A stretch of 35,304 nt of DNA, taken from positions 1-35,304 of the IMG/VR virus record IMGVR_UViG_3300017766_001811; one strand, written 5' to 3'. This document shows, one piece after another, positions 1 through 31,105 of the stretch (positions are counted from its first letter, which is position 1; the number at the start of each line of letters is the position of its first letter). Position numbers and translations under genes: made by a program. The notes beneath the pieces are model-generated. The model was not told the origin of the DNA. It searched no databases and saw only the letters and a list, made by a program, of their open reading frames with translations. This DNA comes from a virus (taxonomy: Duplodnaviria > Caudoviricetes).

Positions 1-76
1 AAGGAAGGGGGGAGGATGAGGAGGGGGTTGCGCCGGGGTCGGGAAACATTCCCCTATCAAAAAACATACCCATCCC

Positions 77-391: not shown

Positions 392-1222
392 CTAGTGTCC
401 GCTGCTCCCGAAACCCTTCTCGCCACGTGTGGTCTCTGACAGAGCAGCATGGTCGATACGCAACACCTCCATACCCATGGCATAGGTGGGGAAGGGGATA
501 GCCTGCACCAACCGTTCACGTGGTTGGACAGTCACAGGCTGGTCACCGATGTTCTGACACACCACAAACATCGGACCCCTATACCCTGCATCGATCACAC
601 TGGGTGGGACATAGAGCCGACGTCTGGCAAACGTGGACGACCTACCCAACACCAAGGCCCACATACCATCAGGCCACTCAAGATGGACATCACACGGTAC
701 GGTGGTGATCTCACCAGGAGCCACAGTCACAGGCTGGTCGTTGCTGCAGAACAGGTCAAAACCCGCATCGTCATGATGTGCCTTGTCCGGTACCAATCCT
801 GAACCGGCGACCTTCAACACCGCTGGCTCAGACACGACAGATCCCAACCCGTCCAACCAACGGTACAGACTGTCCCAATCTCCCGGCTCGATCATCGTCA
901 CACCAGGAGTACCGAACAGCGCGAAACCCGCAGTCTGACCGATCACCAACACAGGGATACCCAGGGTGGTGGCTTCTCCGATCTCGACACCACAACCGAC
1001 CGAATGGACACCGGCCGGCCAGTAGACCACAACACCATCCGCAGCCTGGAGCGCGTACCGGTTGACAGTCTGAACCCGTGAATCCATGATCGTCAGGTCG
1101 ACATCCCATGCTCCTCCTGGGCGGTAGACGGTCAGTCCACAGTTGATGATCTCGTTGGTGAGTTCGCTGACCTCCAACGGGTTGATGGTGGCGAAGTCCA
1201 ACGGGTGGGCTAGGTAGATCAC
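392..1222 (-). CDS. Fusion of a nucleoside 2-deoxyribosyltransferase/dNMP N-glycosidase-like domain and a trimeric dUTPase-family domain
   Basis: N-terminal IYLAHP...ADGVVV...SVGCGVEIGEA...PVLV (NDT/DNPH1-like). C-terminal dUTPase motifs AGFDL, GRSS, VIDAGYRG, RLVQ, RGEKGFGSSG. GTG start at 1222 overlaps the upstream stop (GTGA) and follows GGAGG. Confidence 0.8.
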   Translation of the reverse strand: MIYLAHPLDFATINPLEVSELTNEIINCGLTVYRPGGAWDVDLTIMDSRVQTVNRYALQAADGVVVYWPAGVHSVGCGVEIGEATTLGIPVLVIGQTAGFALFGTPGVTMIEPGDWDSLYRWLDGLGSVVSEPAVLKVAGSGLVPDKAHHDDAGFDLFCSNDQPVTVAPGEITTVPCDVHLEWPDGMWALVLGRSSTFARRRLYVPPSVIDAGYRGPMFVVCQNIGDQPVTVQPRERLVQAIPFPTYAMGMEVLRIDHAALSETTRGEKGFGSSGH

Positions 1223-1566
1223 AGCCAGCCTCCTGTCTGGCGGATCTTCATGGCCATCATGCTGTAGAAATGCAGGTCGTACCATGAGTCACTGTCTGGG
1301 ATCTGACCCATCTCGTATCCTGAGAAGATCCGTGCGATCTTCCCCATGGTGTAGAACGCAACAGCGATCTCCTCATCGCTGATCTCGGTCGAGATACCGG
1401 GTGCGAGCCGGCGCATCGCTGCTCCGATAGTGTGGAGGTCACCTGATCCGTAACGGACGGTCTTACCCATGTCGTTGTTGATCCGTTCATGGAGACTGTT
1501 GATCCACTCTAGGAGTGGGGTCAGAGCGGGGTATTCCCACTCGAGTTCCTGGTTGGTTGGTTCCAT
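1219..1566 (-). CDS. All-helical MazG-like / DUF1599 (Nmad1)-like nucleotide-modification-associated protein
   Basis: K..RYGS ... GKIARI ... DSWYDL..Y pattern. Lies between purZ and the dUTPase fusion. Confidence 0.5.
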   Translation of the reverse strand: MEPTNQELEWEYPALTPLLEWINSLHERINNDMGKTVRYGSGDLHTIGAAMRRLAPGISTEISDEEIAVAFYTMGKIARIFSGYEMGQIPDSDSWYDLHFYSMMAMKIRQTGGWL

Positions 1567-1587: not shown

Positions 1588-2688
1588 TCAGATGGTGGGT
1601 AGGTCGCGGAGCCAGACGATGGTGTCGGGTCCGGTGGTGACTGCGGCTGGTGGGCAGATCTCTTCTGCGAACCGGTCCAACCATGTGTAGATCTCAGAGG
1701 TGAGGTCGGCACTGTTGGCGACGGTCGGATCGATGTAGTCCAGGAAGGACAGGATGATGTGGACGTTCGGGTTGGTGGGGTTGTCGATGTCTCCACCGTT
1801 TGCCTCGTACGCTCCGATCACCAGATCCTGGTCCCATTCTCCGATCCTACGGATCTTCTGTGTGACGGTGGTACGTTCGGGCTGGATGTAGCCGTTGCTC
1901 ATCTCGTTGAGGTCTGCCCAGTCGAGTTCCCCGTTGAGTGGTCCGCTGTTGCCAGCGACACGGATGGGGTAGGTGCGTGCGACGAGCCATGTGTCGGTGC
2001 GTGCGATCCTGTGGTCCCAGGGGTTGAGTCCGGCCATGGCGAGGAAGTCGATAGCGCGGGTGTTGCTGCTGGTGCAGTGGGGGTAGTGTCCGCTGTGGAG
2101 TCCTAGTCCGTAGCCCTGGGTGCCTTCGATGATGACGTCCCATGTGGTGTGGCTGGCGAGGAGCCGGTGTACGGGGTCGGGGGTGGTCCACTGTCGGGTG
2201 TAGGTGTTGTCTCGTGCGATGTTGGCCTGTCGCATGAGTCGTGCTGCTCGTGCTGCTCCGATGCCTTTGCCGGTGCTGCCGATCTTGCCGGTGAGGTCGG
2301 CTGTGGTTTCGGCCTGCTTGTGGTGGGGTTCGAGGATGGTGGCCTGTTCGGAGATGAGAAGCCGGTCGGATACGTGGTAGCCGGCCTGGTCGAGCCGGGT
2401 GATCTCGTCTTCGAGGACGTCGATGTCGATCTCGGAGCCGGCTGCGAGGATGAGGTCGCAGGTGGGGTCGACAACAGCGGTGATGGGGATGGTGCGTAGT
2501 GCCCAGATTTTTTGGTCGATGTTGCCCTGGGCGCTGTGGCCTGCGTTGGGTCCGGCTACTCGGATGGTGGCTCGGTTGGGGGTGTGGTTGGGGTGGTTGC
2601 GTCGGGCGCGGTTGATCTGGGCTGTGATGTGACCTTTTGCTTCGCTTCCGAACTGTGCTCCGACGATGATGTCGAGGTGTCTGATCAT
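1588..2688 (-). CDS. purZ: PurZ (PurZ0-type) 2-amino-deoxyadenylosuccinate synthetase, a PurA paralogue
   Basis: PurA-fold motifs GPNAGH, GSTGKGIG, EGTQG, YPHCTS. The P-loop GAQFGSEAKG has Ser where PurA has catalytic Asp (GDEGKG). Also PIRVAGNSG and ERTTVTQKIRR. SFLD keeps the guanine-binding Asp, as in GTP-using PurZ0. Confidence 0.85.
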   Translation of the reverse strand: MIRHLDIIVGAQFGSEAKGHITAQINRARRNHPNHTPNRATIRVAGPNAGHSAQGNIDQKIWALRTIPITAVVDPTCDLILAAGSEIDIDVLEDEITRLDQAGYHVSDRLLISEQATILEPHHKQAETTADLTGKIGSTGKGIGAARAARLMRQANIARDNTYTRQWTTPDPVHRLLASHTTWDVIIEGTQGYGLGLHSGHYPHCTSSNTRAIDFLAMAGLNPWDHRIARTDTWLVARTYPIRVAGNSGPLNGELDWADLNEMSNGYIQPERTTVTQKIRRIGEWDQDLVIGAYEANGGDIDNPTNPNVHIILSFLDYIDPTVANSADLTSEIYTWLDRFAEEICPPAAVTTGPDTIVWLRDLPTI

Positions 2689-8979: not shown

Positions 8980-9066
8980 GTCTGCCTCCTCAGGCTCTGT
9001 CGGTGGTGTCTCCTCCGACCCCCAAAGTAAACCACACCCCAACCACCCATGTCAAGTCCTTTTACG
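8980..9066 (-). promoter_or_regulatory. Repeated promoter/leader/RBS element, copy 1
   Basis: GTAAAA, TTGACA (9055-9050), 18-nt spacer ending TGG, TTTACT, then GGGGGTCGG...CCGACAGAGCCTGAGGAGGC-ATG. Confidence 0.8.
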
Positions 9067-12839: not shown

Positions 12840-12932
12840 TCTGTTTGCCTCCTCAGGCTCTGTCGTCGGGAACCGTTCCCTCCGACCCCCATATCTTATC
12901 AGACCCTACAACCCATGTCAAGCATTTTTACA
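12840..12932 (-). promoter_or_regulatory. Repeated promoter/leader/RBS element, copy 2
   Basis: TGTAAAAA, TTGACA (12921-12916)-N17-TAAGAT (12898-12893), leader hairpin, AGAGCCTGAGGAGGC. Confidence 0.85.
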
Positions 12933-13715: not shown

Positions 13716-13743
13716 CTGTGCCTCCTCAGGCTCTTGTGTCGGG
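13716..13743 (-). promoter_or_regulatory. Repeated RBS element, copy 3 (no promoter part)
   Basis: CCGACACAAGAGCCTGAGGAGGCACAG-ATG. Confidence 0.75.
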
Positions 13744-13927: not shown

Positions 13928-14013
13928 TTTGGCCTCCTCAGGCTCTGTCGGGGGTGTTTCCCTCGACCCCCATATCTTACCAGACCCTCCCACCCGTGTC
14001 AAGGATTTTTACA
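13928..14013 (-). promoter_or_regulatory. Repeated promoter/leader/RBS element, copy 4
   Basis: TGTAAAAA, TTGACA (14002-13997)-N17-TAAGAT (13979-13974), leader hairpin, AGAGCCTGAGGAGGC. Confidence 0.85.
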
Positions 14014-24627: not shown

Positions 24628-25641
24628 TCAGATGTCTAGCCTCTGAAGTAGAGACTGTGCATGTCGTTCAAACGTCCGGTCGGCTACCGCACGTCTGGCT
24701 TCCTCTGCTGCACGGTCGCGCAACGTCGGGTTGTTCGCTGCCCATCGTAGCACGTCACCCAACTCACTTGGGTTGTCTACCACCGGCAACATCGGAAACA
24801 CCCGGTCGCTCTCCGGCCGGCTCTGACGTGCAAACCACAAACCACATGCAGCCATCTCAACCTCACGTGGTCCCATCGCCCAACCATCCTGGAGGTCTGG
24901 CCGGTTGGCTTCTGTCCTATATAGGTTGAACGATGTTTTGGAACGCCGGTAGATCTCTGCGGTCTGGTCGTTGTCAAGACATTCATCCAGGCCATGGATG
25001 ACATGTGGCTCAAGGGTTGGACCGCAATCTTTCCAGTTGCCAGCCAAGGTCAGCCCGATACCGTCCCAGTCGACCTGTTCGAGCCACTGTACGCGGCTGG
25101 GATAGCCGGTCCCGACGAACGAACAGTCTAGATCTCGGTCGTTGGTCCCAGGGTAGTGGACCGTCGGATCGTGCGCATGTGGGATGTAGACCGTATCAGT
25201 GATCGGGCTGTAGAGATCGATATTGGTAGGGTCGTTCAAAACCACATGATCAAACAGATGTGCCAGCCCGATCTGTCGGTCGTCCTCGTATGGACTTTCG
25301 GTGTAGATCGCCACCAGCCGGTGCCGACGTGCCCGCATCACCTCGAGGACAAACGGCGGTATCCAGAACGCAGAGACGACCACCACGATGTCGGGCCACC
25401 AGTCATAACATGCCGACCGGAGATGTTGTGCTGCGACCTCCATAGCAGCCTCTGTCGGGAACGCCTTCACGTATTCACCCTCAGGTGATTTGACGTAGGC
25501 TCCGGTGTAAAAGGTCAACCGGTCGTTCAGATTGTACTCACGTACCTGCACGCCACACGTTGTAAGTCCTCGCACCCAACCACGATAGACATCGGCTACA
25601 CTGAACTCAGGTCCTGGATGTACAACCAGAGCGCGTGTCAC
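24628..25641 (-). CDS. Glycosyltransferase, GT-B fold (CgeB / Glyco_trans_1_2-like)
   Basis: TESPYED, SFVGTGYPSR, IYRRSKTSFNL, MGPREVEMAACG, HAQSLL ending. Confidence 0.8.
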   Translation of the reverse strand: MTRALVVHPGPEFSVADVYRGWVRGLTTCGVQVREYNLNDRLTFYTGAYVKSPEGEYVKAFPTEAAMEVAAQHLRSACYDWWPDIVVVVSAFWIPPFVLEVMRARRHRLVAIYTESPYEDDRQIGLAHLFDHVVLNDPTNIDLYSPITDTVYIPHAHDPTVHYPGTNDRDLDCSFVGTGYPSRVQWLEQVDWDGIGLTLAGNWKDCGPTLEPHVIHGLDECLDNDQTAEIYRRSKTSFNLYRTEANRPDLQDGWAMGPREVEMAACGLWFARQSRPESDRVFPMLPVVDNPSELGDVLRWAANNPTLRDRAAEEARRAVADRTFERHAQSLLQRLDI

Positions 25642-26653: not shown

Positions 26654-27270
26654 GCGGTGAACCCGTCTAGGATACGGTACGGATCGAGCAGGGTTCGAAC
26701 ATCTGGGTCGGGCTGGCTAGAGACACGAACCACACCGAACTCACCGAACCCGGCCACACCAAGCGGCGATTCTTGACGTCGGGCTACTCGAGCGATCTGG
26801 ATCAGACAAGCGCGTTCAATAGCAGCCGGCACAGCCGACCAGCCCCAGACACCTGTGATCTTCACACGGTTGAGACGGTCCTGGTCGATCAACGGTACGG
26901 GCCACAGGAAATCACCCAGGGCACGAACCTGTCGGACCGGGCTGGTCTCCGGTACGGACCGGTTGACCGGGAGGGTCTGGTACTCGCCTGCGGTGAGGGT
27001 CTTACCGTAGGTACCGTCGCCTTCCTCATCGATCTCGATTGAGGTTAGCGTGGTCAGGTCGTTGAACGCACCAAGATCCAGGATCATGTAGTCGTCGGGT
27101 GTGAACGTGCGTGCTTCGGTGACTTGGAAGAAATGCCGCCGGCAATACCGGTCGATCATCCGCGACACGGTGGTGATGACATCATCGAGATCGGTGGTGT
27201 CGATGGTGTCGTTGAGACCGACGTAACGTCGTGCTTCTGCGGTGGTGGTGTAGCCGTTGGTGATGGTCAT
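26650..27270 (-). CDS. Head-to-tail adaptor
   Basis: NGYTT.AE, SRMIDRYCRRHF, GVWGWSAVP..IERACL, DPDV..LLDPY. Confidence 0.85.
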   Translation of the reverse strand: MTITNGYTTTAEARRYVGLNDTIDTTDLDDVITTVSRMIDRYCRRHFFQVTEARTFTPDDYMILDLGAFNDLTTLTSIEIDEEGDGTYGKTLTAGEYQTLPVNRSVPETSPVRQVRALGDFLWPVPLIDQDRLNRVKITGVWGWSAVPAAIERACLIQIARVARRQESPLGVAGFGEFGVVRVSSQPDPDVRTLLDPYRILDGFTA

Positions 27271-27275
27271 CGCGG

Positions 27276-28094
27276 TCAGATCCGTTCAGGGTTGCGCCAC
27301 CAGAACACACAGAGGATGGCTACTGCTGGTGTCCATACTACAGGCACTGTGCGCATCGCTGCTATCGCCACCATCGGACCGGCTGCGGTCTGTACCAGCC
27401 GTACGGTGTCGGTCGCCACCAAGACCTGCAGATGTGCCATCACGAGGGTTGTAGCAGTCTGCAGGTCGAGACTGCCTAGGGCTAGCAGCAACGGTCCCCA
27501 TGGCTCGAGCCACAACCGGGCGTCTCGCCACCTGCCGGAGTGGGCTGCGAGTGCGGTCCTGACCGGATGGTCGTGTACCATCCTCAGATGTGGTTGGTTG
27601 GTGACCGGATCGATCTGTGGCCGGCGTACCAGCCCGGTGACCGCGGGTAGCAACAGGACGGGTAGCAACAACGGTGTCCATGCCCACAGTGCAGCCCAGA
27701 CCGGTGTGGTCTCTTTGATGCAGGAGGCCACGATCAACAGCCCGATGGCCAGCCACCACAGGTCTGATCTCCAGGCTGCTGCAGCCAGCACCGCTAGTGC
27801 TATGGCGGGGAGGTCAACACCGACCGGTCTGACCACCGCCGGACCCAAGACACCAGGCATCGCCAGAAGAGCCACGGAAGCAGCCACGGAAGCCACCAGA
27901 GCCAACCCCGCTGTCGACGCCAACCAGAACTGACCTAGGCCAAGGAGAACCCACGAGAGACCCCAGACGACCCACCACCGTCGCAACCGGTCCCGACAGA
28001 TGGCAGGTAGGAGCCACCGCAGGTTGAACGGACGGGCCACAGACTGGCCCGAACCGGCCAACAGGTACCGGGCTGCGTCAGGTCCCAGAGACAT
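27276..28094 (-). CDS. Multi-pass membrane protein, possibly a GT-C-type glycosyltransferase
   Basis: Many hydrophobic segments; PD..RY N-terminus, PF.LRWLLP, IKET motif, DTVR; coupled to the GT-A gene. Confidence 0.5.
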   Translation of the reverse strand: MSLGPDAARYLLAGSGQSVARPFNLRWLLPAICRDRLRRWWVVWGLSWVLLGLGQFWLASTAGLALVASVAASVALLAMPGVLGPAVVRPVGVDLPAIALAVLAAAAWRSDLWWLAIGLLIVASCIKETTPVWAALWAWTPLLLPVLLLPAVTGLVRRPQIDPVTNQPHLRMVHDHPVRTALAAHSGRWRDARLWLEPWGPLLLALGSLDLQTATTLVMAHLQVLVATDTVRLVQTAAGPMVAIAAMRTVPVVWTPAVAILCVFWWRNPERI

Positions 28095-28848
28095 CTAGGA
28101 CCTTCACCGGCTCGTCACGGACATCGGCTGGCCACAGGACCCTGGGACCCTTGTGGTGTCCCACGTGGGTGGTACAGTCAACATGGACCGTATAGCCGTG
28201 TTCACGGGCACGCAGACAGAAAGTGATGTCTTCACCGATCCACCACTCAGATCCGCTCTCACCATAACGGATCTCTTCACCGAACCAACAGTTGTTCGAT
28301 CCGTCAGCGTTCTCACGCATCGTCTCAAACACCTCACGGTGTATCAGGAGACATCCGGTACCGGTTGCACCGACCTCAGCCACCACATCATCAGGCCAGT
28401 CCAACAGGACCTGAGTCACAGTCTCAGGATCGTCACTGAACAAGGTTGGGATCAGCCCTTCTGCGGTCTGGATCACACACAGTCCACCCAGGATCTTGGT
28501 GTCTGTCTGGATCGCACGCGCCACCAACCTGTGCAACAGGTCAGGTTCGAACACCATATCGGTGTCACAGAACCACAGCCATTGGCACTGTGGGTACTCG
28601 TCGAGGAACACGGCCACAGCCCGGTTCCTGGCTTTGGTGATGTTGGCACCGGACTCTACACATAGGTAGTTGTCCAACATCCGCAGGTCCAACGGGGTCG
28701 GCTGGTCTGGTGCACCGGCCTTCTCCCACTGCATGACCGCGTATTCCCGGTCAAAGGTCTCAAGTTCGGTCAGTGACCGCATGAAACGAGAAGAGATGTC
28801 GTGGCCCGATGATGGGAACGCCAACAGTGCTCGACCAGGATGGTCCAT
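28078..28848 (-). CDS. Glycosyltransferase, GT-A fold (GT2-like)
   Basis: ITKARN, WLWFCDTD (DxD), TGTGCLLIHR, GEDITFC, VGHHK. Confidence 0.85.
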   Translation of the reverse strand: MDHPGRALLAFPSSGHDISSRFMRSLTELETFDREYAVMQWEKAGAPDQPTPLDLRMLDNYLCVESGANITKARNRAVAVFLDEYPQCQWLWFCDTDMVFEPDLLHRLVARAIQTDTKILGGLCVIQTAEGLIPTLFSDDPETVTQVLLDWPDDVVAEVGATGTGCLLIHREVFETMRENADGSNNCWFGEEIRYGESGSEWWIGEDITFCLRAREHGYTVHVDCTTHVGHHKGPRVLWPADVRDEPVKVLDVSGT

Positions 28849-28853
28849 GGATG

Positions 28854-28883
28854 CCTCCTACAGGGATCGGCACCATCATACCA
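28854..28883 (-). promoter_or_regulatory. Putative extended -10 promoter and RBS for the GT-A gene
   Basis: TGGTATGAT (28883-28875), then AGGAGG 5 nt before ATG 28848. No consensus -35. Confidence 0.45.
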
Positions 28884-28892
28884 TACACAGGT

Positions 28893-28947
28893 GTCCGACC
28901 ATAGCGGAGCACTTACTGAGGAGGCAAGGTGTACACTATGGCCGGAC
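28893..28947 (-). terminator. Long hairpin closing the cassette-5 transcript; apex antisense to the cassette RBS
   Basis: GTCCGGCCATAGTG...CGCTATGGTCGGAC (14 bp, two G-U pairs) enclosing TTGCCTCCTCAG. Confidence 0.65.
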
Positions 28948-28959
28948 TGGTCCAGTCTA

Positions 28960-29217
28960 TCAGGTGTCGTTATCGGTCTGTCTGATAACGATCTCCCACA
29001 TAGCAGTTCTTGTCCTGTGGCTGTCCCACCGGCCGGCGGTGATGGTGACCGGACTGGTCATCTCGCCACATGCGATAGCCGATGCTGTGCGTTGGGCTAC
29101 TTCACCCAGGGCACGCCACACATCGATCTCCTGGTCGGTCCACGCTGTACGTGGACCACCAGAGATCTCGAACTCGGCCTGTGGATGTTCGGTGTTCAAC
29201 GACCACCATATTGACAT
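28960..29217 (-). CDS. Hypothetical protein, second gene of cassette 5
   Basis: AGGAG RBS; ATG 1 nt after the upstream stop. Confidence 0.6.
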   Translation of the reverse strand: MSIWWSLNTEHPQAEFEISGGPRTAWTDQEIDVWRALGEVAQRTASAIACGEMTSPVTITAGRWDSHRTRTAMWEIVIRQTDNDT

Positions 29218-29218
29218 G

Positions 29219-29587
29219 TCACTCTCCTGTGCTCTCGTGCCAACCTTCGTCGTCCATCTCTGCGTTGACGACTGCGGACCACCACTCGTCTGCGACGTCC
29301 GACACGTTCATGGCGTAACGGCCTTCGTGCCGGGTGTTGGCCAGGACGGTCATCGCTTCGTTCATGTTGATGATCGCAGCGTCAGACAGGTTGAACCTCA
29401 GCGTGATCTCACGGCGGGTACCGGGGAGGATTCCGGCCGGCATCGCTCGGCTGAGCACGTCGGACACGTGGCCAGAGGTAGAGTCTGCGTCGACCCGGTC
29501 ACAGAACTTGTTGATGCTGTGTGCTGCGTCGAACAGGATCTCTGCCTGTCGCCAGCCGGTCACGGTGATGGTGAGTGTGTTCGTCAT
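29219..29587 (-). CDS. Hypothetical protein, first gene of cassette 5
   Basis: ATG 5 nt after GAGGAGG of the repeated leader. Confidence 0.7.
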   Translation of the reverse strand: MTNTLTITVTGWRQAEILFDAAHSINKFCDRVDADSTSGHVSDVLSRAMPAGILPGTRREITLRFNLSDAAIINMNEAMTVLANTRHEGRYAMNVSDVADEWWSAVVNAEMDDEGWHESTGE

Positions 29588-29678
29588 GTTTGCCTCCTCA
29601 GGCTCTGTCGTCAGGAACTGTTCCCTCCGACCCCCAAAGTAAACCACACACGACACATCTGTGTCAAGTGTTTTTACA
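29588..29678 (-). promoter_or_regulatory. Repeated promoter/leader/RBS element, copy 5
   Basis: TGTAAAAA, TTGACA (29667-29662)-N18-TTTACT (29643-29638), leader hairpin, AGAGCCTGAGGAGGC. Confidence 0.8.
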
Positions 29679-29682
29679 CAGA

Positions 29683-29730
29683 GGGACCGGACCACCACAG
29701 GAAAGGGCTAACCTGCAGTGGCCCGGTCCC
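29683..29730 (-). terminator. 19-bp hairpin after the major capsid gene
   Basis: GGGACCGGGCCACTGCAGG-TTAGCCCTTT-CCTGTGGTGGTCCGGTCCC, fully paired on the minus strand with three G-U pairs. Confidence 0.75.
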
Positions 29731-29749
29731 AACCGGGTGAGTCAGATGA

Positions 29750-31105
29750 TCAACTCAGGACGTTGGCGAGACCCGTACCCTGGATCACACAGGTGCTGAC
29801 CGGGTAACGGCCGGCGGTGAAGGCGCTGTAGCCGTACACGACCATCCGCACGCTCAACTGGTCAGCCAGGACCTCCTCAAGTTCGAGACCGACCGGCGCA
29901 CCAGCATCCTCCATGAACAGCACGTCGGAACGGCGGGTCACGATGATCCGGTCCTCGTTGGTGGAAGTGCCCAGGGTGGTGGGCACCGCAGCATCAGTGA
30001 TGACCGGGATACCGGCGATCGAGCCGACCGCGTTGTACCCAGGAGCGGAACCCTGACCGATCACGTTCATGCCAGAACCACCGACGATCTCCACCAGCGG
30101 ACGGTTGCTGCTGTCCGAACCGGCACAGAGGAACGCCCAACGGCGGGGATGCATCACGATCAGGTCGGGAGCAGCGTAACGGCCAGCATTGACCTTGCCG
30201 ATCGCGTTGTGGATCGACGACACCAGCGCGGTAGCGGTGGTGCCGGTGAACCCGGCGGTCTGGACCGACGTGGTGGACAGGATGCCCCAGTGGCCACCGG
30301 CGGTGCCGTCACCAGTGATGGCCGAGACGTTGACCTTCGTGGCGTACTGCTGGAACAGGTCAGCCATGAGGATGCCATCGATCCCGGTACCACGATCGAT
30401 CGACTGCTTCGACACGACCTGCTGACCAGCGAACGTGCGGACCGGCACGACGAGATCGGACTCGGTGAAGGTCTGGTTGGTGACCGCGGTGTTCTCGGTG
30501 GTCTGGGCGGCGACGCTCGTCCCGGTGGCTCCACGCGGGATGGTGAGGTTCATGCCCTGCGCCGGCAGAGCGACGTTGGTGACAGCCGACAGGAACGGAC
30601 GACCCGAGACCAGCACCGGAGCGAACTGCTCGGTCAGGTACTGCGGGACGACAAGACCACCGAAGTTGCCGGTCGTCGACCGGTAGTCGATCTCAGCCTC
30701 GCGACGGTTCCGCTCGAGCCGGTCAGCGGCACGGGCATCGCCGCGCTTGGCAGCGAGCACGTCACCCAGGAAGTCAAACTCACCGTCAGGACGGTACGTG
30801 CGAGCCTCAGTGCGGACCGTGACGCTACGCGCCTGGACCACGCCCAGGGCGTCACGGGTGTCCTCAGCGGCGGACTTGCGCTGCTCGATCTCCATCAGGT
30901 CTGCCTCTCGGCTCCGCAGGTTCTCGACCTTGGTGTCGATCTCCTGGAGAGCGGTACGTGCCTCGTCGAACGAGGCGGTCTCGTCAGCCGTCAGGTCAGA
31001 ACGACCCTCAGACTCTGCAGCAGCGATGATCGCGTCCAGAGCGGCCTGCTTGTCGCCGCGCTGGTCGAGGAAATCGCTGATCTCGGTGCGGATCTGCTCC
31101 AGCAT
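29750..31105 (-). CDS. Major capsid protein (HK97 fold with N-terminal scaffolding domain)
   Basis: Coiled-coil N-terminus, GGLVVPQ, ITGDGT, VMHPRRW, IAGIPV; GGGAGG RBS. Confidence 0.92.
   Translation of the reverse strand: MLEQIRTEISDFLDQRGDKQAALDAIIAAAESEGRSDLTADETASFDEARTALQEIDTKVENLRSREADLMEIEQRKSAAEDTRDALGVVQARSVTVRTEARTYRPDGEFDFLGDVLAAKRGDARAADRLERNRREAEIDYRSTTGNFGGLVVPQYLTEQFAPVLVSGRPFLSAVTNVALPAQGMNLTIPRGATGTSVAAQTTENTAVTNQTFTESDLVVPVRTFAGQQVVSKQSIDRGTGIDGILMADLFQQYATKVNVSAITGDGTAGGHWGILSTTSVQTAGFTGTTATALVSSIHNAIGKVNAGRYAAPDLIVMHPRRWAFLCAGSDSSNRPLVEIVGGSGMNVIGQGSAPGYNAVGSIAGIPVITDAAVPTTLGTSTNEDRIIVTRRSDVLFMEDAGAPVGLELEEVLADQLSVRMVVYGYSAFTAGRYPVSTCVIQGTGLANVLS

Follow-up and report, generated by a model that had tools for sequence, protein, structure and literature searches.

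The locus raises the question of whether a small hairpin, whose apex is complementary to a ribosome-binding site (RBS) repeated across its own phage genome, acts on that RBS as an RNA. The genome, which we call the window and which is the whole record (35,304 bp), is that of a tailed phage with HK97-type head genes and tail genes, two glycosyltransferases, a C5 methylase, WhiB, a PurZ-like synthetase and a dUTPase, with every annotated gene on the minus strand. The WhiB gene suggests an actinobacterial host, and the metagenomes that best cover the phage are from freshwater. Using the capsid protein as a query against viral, metagenome and genome collections, we found that the nearest match besides the phage itself is at 69%, and that the best matches in genome collections are MAG contigs with mixed labels. 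BLAST searches with positions 27000–31000 gave no match to annotated phages, the hairpin region resembles none of 50,697 phage records in sequence, and a scan of the whole window against Rfam (E up to 1) returned 0 matches. The exact apex 17-mer has two matches in viral contigs (a 99.98% copy of this phage, and a chance match in an A+T-rich gene), and searches of viral contigs with leader and promoter patterns returned only the same copy and three unrelated loci, or nothing.

Some features elsewhere in the window are worth recording. The PurZ-like adenylosuccinate synthetase (1588–2688, minus strand) found no relatives when used as a query against viral contigs, and the dUTPase ORF (392–1285, minus strand) carries a weak N-terminal match to deoxyribosyltransferase; together with the C5 methylase, these sequences could point to a modified-base genome. 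The two glycosyltransferases and a predicted membrane-type protein lie among the head and tail genes (24628–25641, 27276–28094 and 28078–28848, minus strand) and are kept across about 50 freshwater relatives, possibly as a virion glycosylation module. At the end of the record (1–54, minus strand) a C/U-rich run with CCUCCUCA, an 8-nt anti-tag, follows a small hairpin.

A hairpin and the repeated leaders that it matches

A family of repeats marks five translation starts in the window, with the tag AGAGCCTGAGGAGGC placed before the ATG. The repeat is asymmetric, and its GGAGG sits 5–8 nt ahead of the ATG in all five copies. Four of the leaders consist of TTGACA, a gap of 17–18 nt, TAAGAT or TTTACT, a G-run and a small stem-loop, followed by the tag and ATG, and these same four also carry a TGTAAAA/CGTAAAA upstream element. 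Copy 3 (13718) comprises the RBS part only and has no promoter of its own, so the five cassette leaders of the initial annotation are better described as four promoter-bearing leaders and one RBS-only copy. The cassette-5 leader (29602–29680, minus strand) contains an A-rich element, TTGACA (29667–29662), 18 nt, TTTACT (29643–29638), a G-run and the small stem-loop. It precedes gene a (29219–29587, minus strand; 122 amino acids, with 2 database matches, and contained in a longer ORF at 29219–29698 that has no family) and gene b (28960–29217, minus strand), an 85-amino acid orphan whose stop is 12 nt before the hairpin. Each of the five tags also folds as a 4-bp mini-hairpin, GCCU-GAGG-AGGC, whose loop holds the SD core (e.g. 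29593–29604, minus strand) and which in folding models might be a loop-loop entry point or a protein site.

The hairpin itself, a candidate anti-RBS RNA element of 55 nt (28893–28947, minus strand), has a 14-bp base stem with two G-U pairs and a 7-nt loop. Its minus-strand fold has an energy of −27.5 kcal/mol (z −5.1; 0 of 200 shuffles as good), compared to −22.7 kcal/mol (z −3.6) for the plus strand, which agrees with the initial annotation that the structure forms best where its G-U pairs exist. In a genome-wide ranking stepped by 2, which passes over the exact frame of the hairpin, the share of windows with a fold as good or better is 0.33%. The apex UUGCCUCCUCAG (28916–28927, minus strand) is the complement of the leader RBS. 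The 12-mer CTGAGGAGGCAA occurs exactly on the minus strand at 12845–12856 and 29590–29601, and its single inverted occurrence is on the plus strand at 28916–28927; similarly, GAGGAGGC has one plus-strand copy, away from gene starts, versus five on the coding strand. The antisense matches that had been read by eye hold up on measurement, at 11, 12, 11, 10 and 12 nt for copies 1 to 5: leader 1 (8982–8993; 11 nt plus one G-U), leader 2 (12845–12856; 12 of 12), the promoterless copy 3 (13718–13729; 11 nt), leader 4 (13930–13941; 10 nt) and leader 5 (29590–29601; 12 of 12), all on the minus strand. The description of this match as the tip of the hairpin is right as to location but too generous as to accessibility: the open loop is CUCCUCA only (28923–28917; 7 of the 12 nt), the other 5 nt being in, or closing, a weak 4-bp top stem, and freeing all 12 is predicted to cost 4.2 kcal/mol.

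Match length alone proves little: a 12-mer antisense to any of the five RBS windows is expected 0.12–0.17 times genome-wide, and 5 of 32 other genes also have a 12-mer antisense match somewhere. Position is more informative. With 189 apex sites available from 21 strong single-hairpin loops, the expected number of apex-located matches is 6–9 x 10−4, a post hoc value for this motif as chosen. As a background from outside, 84 inverted minor-repeat copies were taken from other phages, of which 2 lie at an apex. The hairpin element is real and the position of its match is beyond chance.

The window contains a second 14-bp hairpin (11915–11866, minus strand; z −6.4) with a 22-nt C/U loop, AACCACCCUUCCUUCCUCUCCC, which closes the run of short genes that leaders 4, 3 and 2 precede. 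Its loop is predicted to pair weakly (−6 to −8 kcal/mol) with the G-rich 5' ends of the leaders, and the duplex GUCCGGCC/GGUCGGAC, wobble included, is common to both hairpins with its arms swapped.

Gene order in relatives and a second strain

A capsid-protein search gave 154 loci, 61 of which also hold a glycosyltransferase gene, and in 57 of these 61 the gap between the capsid and glycosyltransferase genes is at most 130 nt. None of the 154 loci has a match to the cassette genes or the hairpin, and none of 26 distinct capsid-glycosyltransferase spacers contains an anti-SD loop. A hairpin that follows the capsid gene in the relatives is kept in the window at 29683–29730 (minus strand). It marks the upstream edge of an inserted unit consisting of leader 5, the two orphan genes and the 28893–28947 hairpin, which by this sequence comparison added about 800 bp to the late operon. 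The 28893–28947 hairpin was also considered as the ancestral post-capsid terminator, which is ruled out because that one persists at 29730–29683. Among nine longer relatives, all but one of them fragments, no SD 10-mer occurs more than 4 times before an ATG; 7 further relative stretches have no leader-like repeat, and the promoter pattern is found in 2 of 10 relative records, once each. Since the relatives read have neither the repeated RBS nor the anti-SD loop, tag and anti-tag are absent together there.

Some of the relatives' spacers have loop and repeat pairs of their own. In L007, L008, L010, L011 and L012, a spacer loop UGACAGC complements three GCUGUCA repeats before the next RBS (e.g. 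L007:1413–1533), and the capsid-glycosyltransferase spacer of L009 has a loop UAGGCAG and one downstream CUGCCUA. From their sequences these pairs may be pseudoknot switches or DNA iterons.

Strain variation came from 4 of 16 metagenome runs and amounts to one diverged strain (run X4), whose contig over 28300–29208 has 20 differences, or about 2% divergence. None of the 16 runs listed is an RNA run, which speaks neither for nor against expression. Among the 19 of the 20 differences that are listed, two are in the hairpin, where they turn both G-U pairs into G-C, and none is in the loop. Changes at both G-U pairs fit a minus-strand RNA stem, as a weak indication from sequence, and the resulting stem is a perfect inverted repeat that folds better on the plus strand (−35.3 versus −32.1). 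The intact loop is weak support because an intact 12-mer is expected about 77% of the time at this divergence. The second strain also has one base apparently inserted at the 3' edge of the leader-5 tag, and 789 more nucleotides inside the cassette, with the hairpin retained.

Predicted pairing and competing explanations

We ranked 35 phage start regions as partners of the apex using a duplex-plus-opening heuristic that ignores loop topology. The five leaders take ranks 1 to 5 (−10.1 to −13.3 kcal/mol), and the sixth-ranked start, that of the glycosyltransferase gene, is at −4.8 kcal/mol; the interaction prediction proposed as a check in the initial annotation thus came out in favor of the leaders. 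The apex match also spans the tag flanks CUG and CAA, which we take to be outside the pairing reach of the 16S tail. The RBS of the glycosyltransferase gene, AGGAGGCA (28852–28859, minus strand), has an 8-nt match to the apex and in this model is a possible weak target in cis.

From these models we think it reasonably likely that the hairpin is a trans-acting anti-RBS RNA that represses the five tagged leaders. Its apex would pair with all five in trans and block their translation together, starting from a 7-bp loop-only kiss, CUCCUCA on UGAGGAG (about −6 kcal/mol), that would extend to 10–12 bp once the weak stem at the top is open (−10 to −13 kcal/mol). The RNA could be the stable 3' end of the cassette-5 transcript made from its early-type promoter, giving negative feedback, and could also be made as part of late read-through from the capsid gene. 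After the capsid hairpin, a −10-like hexamer is missing from 18 of 26 relative spacers, which makes late read-through probable there, and the other 8 have TAnnnT. Less convincingly, the hairpin might have a promoter of its own, TGA-TAGACT, an extended −10-like motif (28954–28962, minus strand) 6 nt before the hairpin, from which a short primary RNA would start at 28947/28948. TGA-TAGACT is weak as a promoter because its TGA TAG serves gene b as a pair of tandem stops, and extended −10-like motifs are weak in general because matches to the broad pattern TGnTAnnnT are so frequent in the window (18 on the minus strand and 16 on the plus strand). An 8-bp inverted repeat (28967–28991), inside the 3' end of gene b, flanks the −35 position of TGA-TAGACT, and another extended −10-like motif, TGG-TATGAT, lies without a −35 before the glycosyltransferase gene (28875–28883, minus strand). 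From the first two sources, the hairpin RNA would build up and turn down the strong early-type cassettes as infection proceeds. The proposal of a trans-acting RNA in the initial annotation thus gains from the predicted target specificity, from the modeled preference of each loop for its own tag family and from the analogy with cluster K phages (below); its late timing is a conjecture, because the cassette that the hairpin closes has a TTGACA promoter of the early type.

It is unlikely, in our judgment, that this is instead an ordinary 3'-end hairpin (a terminator, attenuator or stabilizer) whose apex is the relic of an inverted leader or a chance match without a pairing role. Such a hairpin would be well placed just behind gene b, the last of the cassette, a 14-bp hairpin likewise closes the other cassette block (11915–11866), several tag-bearing phages have no anti-tag hairpin, and by eye the plus strand before the 12-mer is loosely leader-like (CCGAC..AG..AGC). 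However, there is no U-tract after the hairpin and the terminator scan did not list it (U-less terminators do occur in actinobacteria), no plus-strand TTGACA or consensus −10 is left upstream to mark an inverted leader, the low expectation for apex-located matches argues against chance, and cluster K shows the same arrangement at an apex with a different tag. A 3'-end role can in any case coexist with the trans anti-RBS role. Control solely in cis seems to us a little less probable again. Here the loop would kiss either its own cassette RBS, 670 nt upstream, which would time-limit the mRNA, or the RBS of the glycosyltransferase gene, some 60 nt downstream, which would stop early read-through from translating late genes. 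Leader 5 does match all 12 nt, and the glycosyltransferase RBS ranks sixth of 35 with its 8-nt match, but that pairing is worth just −4.8 kcal/mol, and the distance to leader 5 is 789 nt greater in the second strain. In addition, nested folding of the 747-nt cassette-5 transcript, a model that does not extend to pseudoknots, gives RBS-apex pairing a probability of 0.003 and keeps the hairpin stem at 0.93–1.0. A fold-back silencing the first gene of the cassette in the manner of type I toxin mRNAs, as initially suggested, is therefore not predicted. Type I toxin ORFs are under 60 codons long and encode small hydrophobic proteins, and the first cassette-5 gene encodes 122 amino acids with no family.

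The two readings that remain are improbable. CCUCCU is the standard anti-SD core, so the loop might belong to a general anti-Shine-Dalgarno RNA directed at host mRNAs, its match to the phage leaders being incidental. The mycobacterial 6C RNA, which targets many actinobacterial mRNAs with a C-rich loop, is a precedent (PMC6486639), but six flanking bases of the apex match the phage tag, and its best targets among the 35 phage starts ranked are the phage's own five leaders. We put this at very unlikely, and give the lowest probability of all to a plus-strand role, either as the RBS of a short peptide or as a DNA operator readable in either direction. A GTG located 4 nt after GGAGG does open a frame of 18 codons, and the 3' arm of the hairpin overlaps the −35 position of the TATGAT motif. 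The peptide is disfavored because codon 9 of its frame is turned into a stop in the second strain (28953 C>T). There is no promoter-like site on the plus strand, which has no annotated genes, and the two G-U pairs exist on the minus strand alone. The initial annotation had named a functional plus-strand RBS as an observation that would overturn the RNA reading, and we did not find one.

Comparison with cluster K phages and other known systems

The closest parallel to the trans-acting RNA that we favor comes from SAS (start-associated sequence), a repeat in cluster K mycobacteriophages. In four K1 phages one SAS copy is reversed and unlinked to any start, and the question of whether SAS is read by RNA or protein was left open in 2011, in the sections cited here (Pope et al. 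2011, PMC3203893). In the cited sections of the SAS papers the reversed copy is noted without a structure or a role (PMC3203893, PMC11373665, PMC12699233), and the role of SAS itself was called "ill-defined" in 2024 (PMC11373665) and described as needing a test in 2025 (PMC12699233). Our search, confined to open-access literature, found no description of an anti-SAS hairpin.

Of the 17 SAS matches in phage Anaya one is reversed, and it provides the 10-nt loop CCUCCUAUCC of a 54-nt intergenic hairpin (sense strand; z −2.9). This hairpin region is covered to at least 80% in 144 phage records, duplicates included. In six aligned copies, 97.9% of stem cells are paired and there are 4 two-sided changes, a number reached by 2 of 500 shuffles that ignore relatedness. 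All 15 SAS genes are within the top 20 of 59 starts when ranked as targets of the Anaya loop, the top-ranked target being a non-SAS gene. In Adephagia the anti-SAS element lies in the gene 92–93 spacer, the site at which late transcription begins (PMC11373665). In the Kratiovirus-type phages Omnicron, Kratio, Larva and Edugator, UGCCUCCUAUCCC is on a different stem at the left genome end, before the small terminase region, and the Omnicron and Kratio hairpins have z values of about −6. The two cluster K placements have a common top stem and probably one origin, so we count them as one lineage beside that of the window. In cross-family comparisons, scores are above zero for 6 of 8 SAS leaders tried with the window apex and for 4 of 5 window leaders tried with the Anaya loop; in these models each loop prefers the tag of its own family.

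A clear anti-SAS loop is present in 8 of 17 SAS-bearing cluster K phages (Anaya, Adephagia, Niklas, SgtBeansprout, Omnicron, Kratio, Larva and Edugator, the call in SgtBeansprout being from local alignment only), a tally that is not a frequency because most of the 17 were picked by searches with the hairpin itself. The loop is degenerate in 3 of the 17 (DarthP, MacnCheese and Shandong1), and in DarthP and Shandong1 it has drifted where SAS has not. It was not found in the other 6, namely the near-whole sequences of TM4 and Pixie and parts of Hurricane, Yuna, SirPhilip and Fionnbharth. Boilgate, which has no SAS, is covered for 3 kb and is no real control. The whole genomes of the Microbacterium phages AnnaSerena (10 SAS) and Ilzat contain no anti-tag apex, and Ilzat has the tag CTGAGGAGG exactly before 3 genes. 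An anti-tag loop is not required by all tag-bearing phages. Rfam searches in cluster K gave only sub-threshold chance matches, at 5 loci.

Two further observations concern these phages. The cluster K late-promoter spacer (L172:357–791 and homologs) is a long structured leader after an invariant TAGACT, with a GCACA/UGUGC hairpin, a 13–18 bp hairpin, the anti-SAS hairpin and a multi-stem domain with a conserved GCUGGUCACC, and it matches no Rfam family. In Ilzat (L161:39285, 39717 and 37739), three early-region genes have the same tag, CCTGAGGAGG, then 5–6 nt, then ATG, and 121 Microbacterium phage records match the leader end of the window.

More speculatively, and with rather more doubt than belief, we suggest that actinophages have built a protein-free translational regulon more than once, by placing a private, over-conserved RBS tag on early or accessory genes that an anti-tag hairpin loop in a late RNA silences, in which case late transcription would itself turn the tagged genes off. 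If so, this would explain the roles of SAS and of its lone reversed copy in cluster K, with the tag serving as an address label read by RNA. It would also be an RNA counterpart of T4 RegB, and would offer a compact orthogonal tag/anti-tag pair for translation control in actinobacteria. The window points to an RNA reader of the tag, and the cluster K parallel puts a candidate in Adephagia on M. smegmatis; Adephagia is culturable and transcript-mapped, which makes the SAS-reader question directly testable.

The window tag resembles SAS/ESAS in being an asymmetric repeat that sits at the RBS, is conserved past the bases matching 16S and often follows a SigA-like promoter (PMC3203893, PMC11373665, PMC12699233), and both have a single reversed copy, off any start, that forms a hairpin loop. 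The tag AGAGCCTGAGGAGGC would work like SAS but is not a member of it, as the SAS consensus is GGGATAGGAGCCC, which the tag does not match, versus CTGAGGAGGCAA here, and SAS has 11–19 copies versus 5.

The initial annotation had recognized no circuit like this one, but the circuit has more precedent than that implies. RNAs that block an RBS through their loops are known from P1/P7 c4 (PMC12197685), and multi-target C-rich loops from 6C, which binds many mRNAs without a chaperone (PMC6486639). By analogy the hairpin most likely works as c4 or 6C RNA does, by loop pairing with RBSs; it is a member of neither family, having no Rfam match. The c4 RNA (RF01695) is, like the hairpin is predicted to be, a phage RNA with a loop complementary to the RBS of its own mRNA (PMC12197685, PMC2864571), but in the sections cited it controls one antirepressor operon for immunity, whereas the hairpin loop matches five dispersed leaders. 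The RF01695 covariance model has no match in the window, there is no antirepressor family among the 44 ORFs scanned, and the targets of the hairpin are orphan genes. S. aureus RNAIII and RsaE are also C-rich-loop sRNAs. These sRNAs are host RNAs with imperfect and varied targets, in contrast to the perfect match of the hairpin to a phage-private repeat. The 6C RNA shares with the hairpin, as modeled, chaperone-free multi-target pairing through a pyrimidine-rich loop in high-GC Gram-positives (PMC6486639).

The leaders have their own counterpart in the PeSL cassettes of T4-like phages, in which repeated units of about 100 bp, each with a promoter, stem-loop and SD, precede orphan genes in variable regions (PMC2839356). 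For the recombination between copies, with mini-circles, that marks PeSL cassettes, the nearest observation here is the 789-nt difference in cassette content between the two strains. Four of the window's leaders have the PeSL combination of a repeated sigma70-like promoter, an AT-rich upstream element, a stem-loop and an SD. PeSL stem-loops are mostly in the promoter and terminating, according to the sections cited, whereas those of the window leaders are downstream of the −10; the term "antisense" occurs 0 times in the PeSL paper (PMC2839356). T4 RegB resembles our proposal in shutting off early mRNAs, by way of an SD motif that they share, when infection passes from early to late, but RegB is a protein nuclease, and here the reader would be an RNA (PMC9409239). 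By analogy with these systems, what is new in the window would be that a single loop corresponds to a repeated tag private to the phage, with an RNA in the part that RegB plays in T4.
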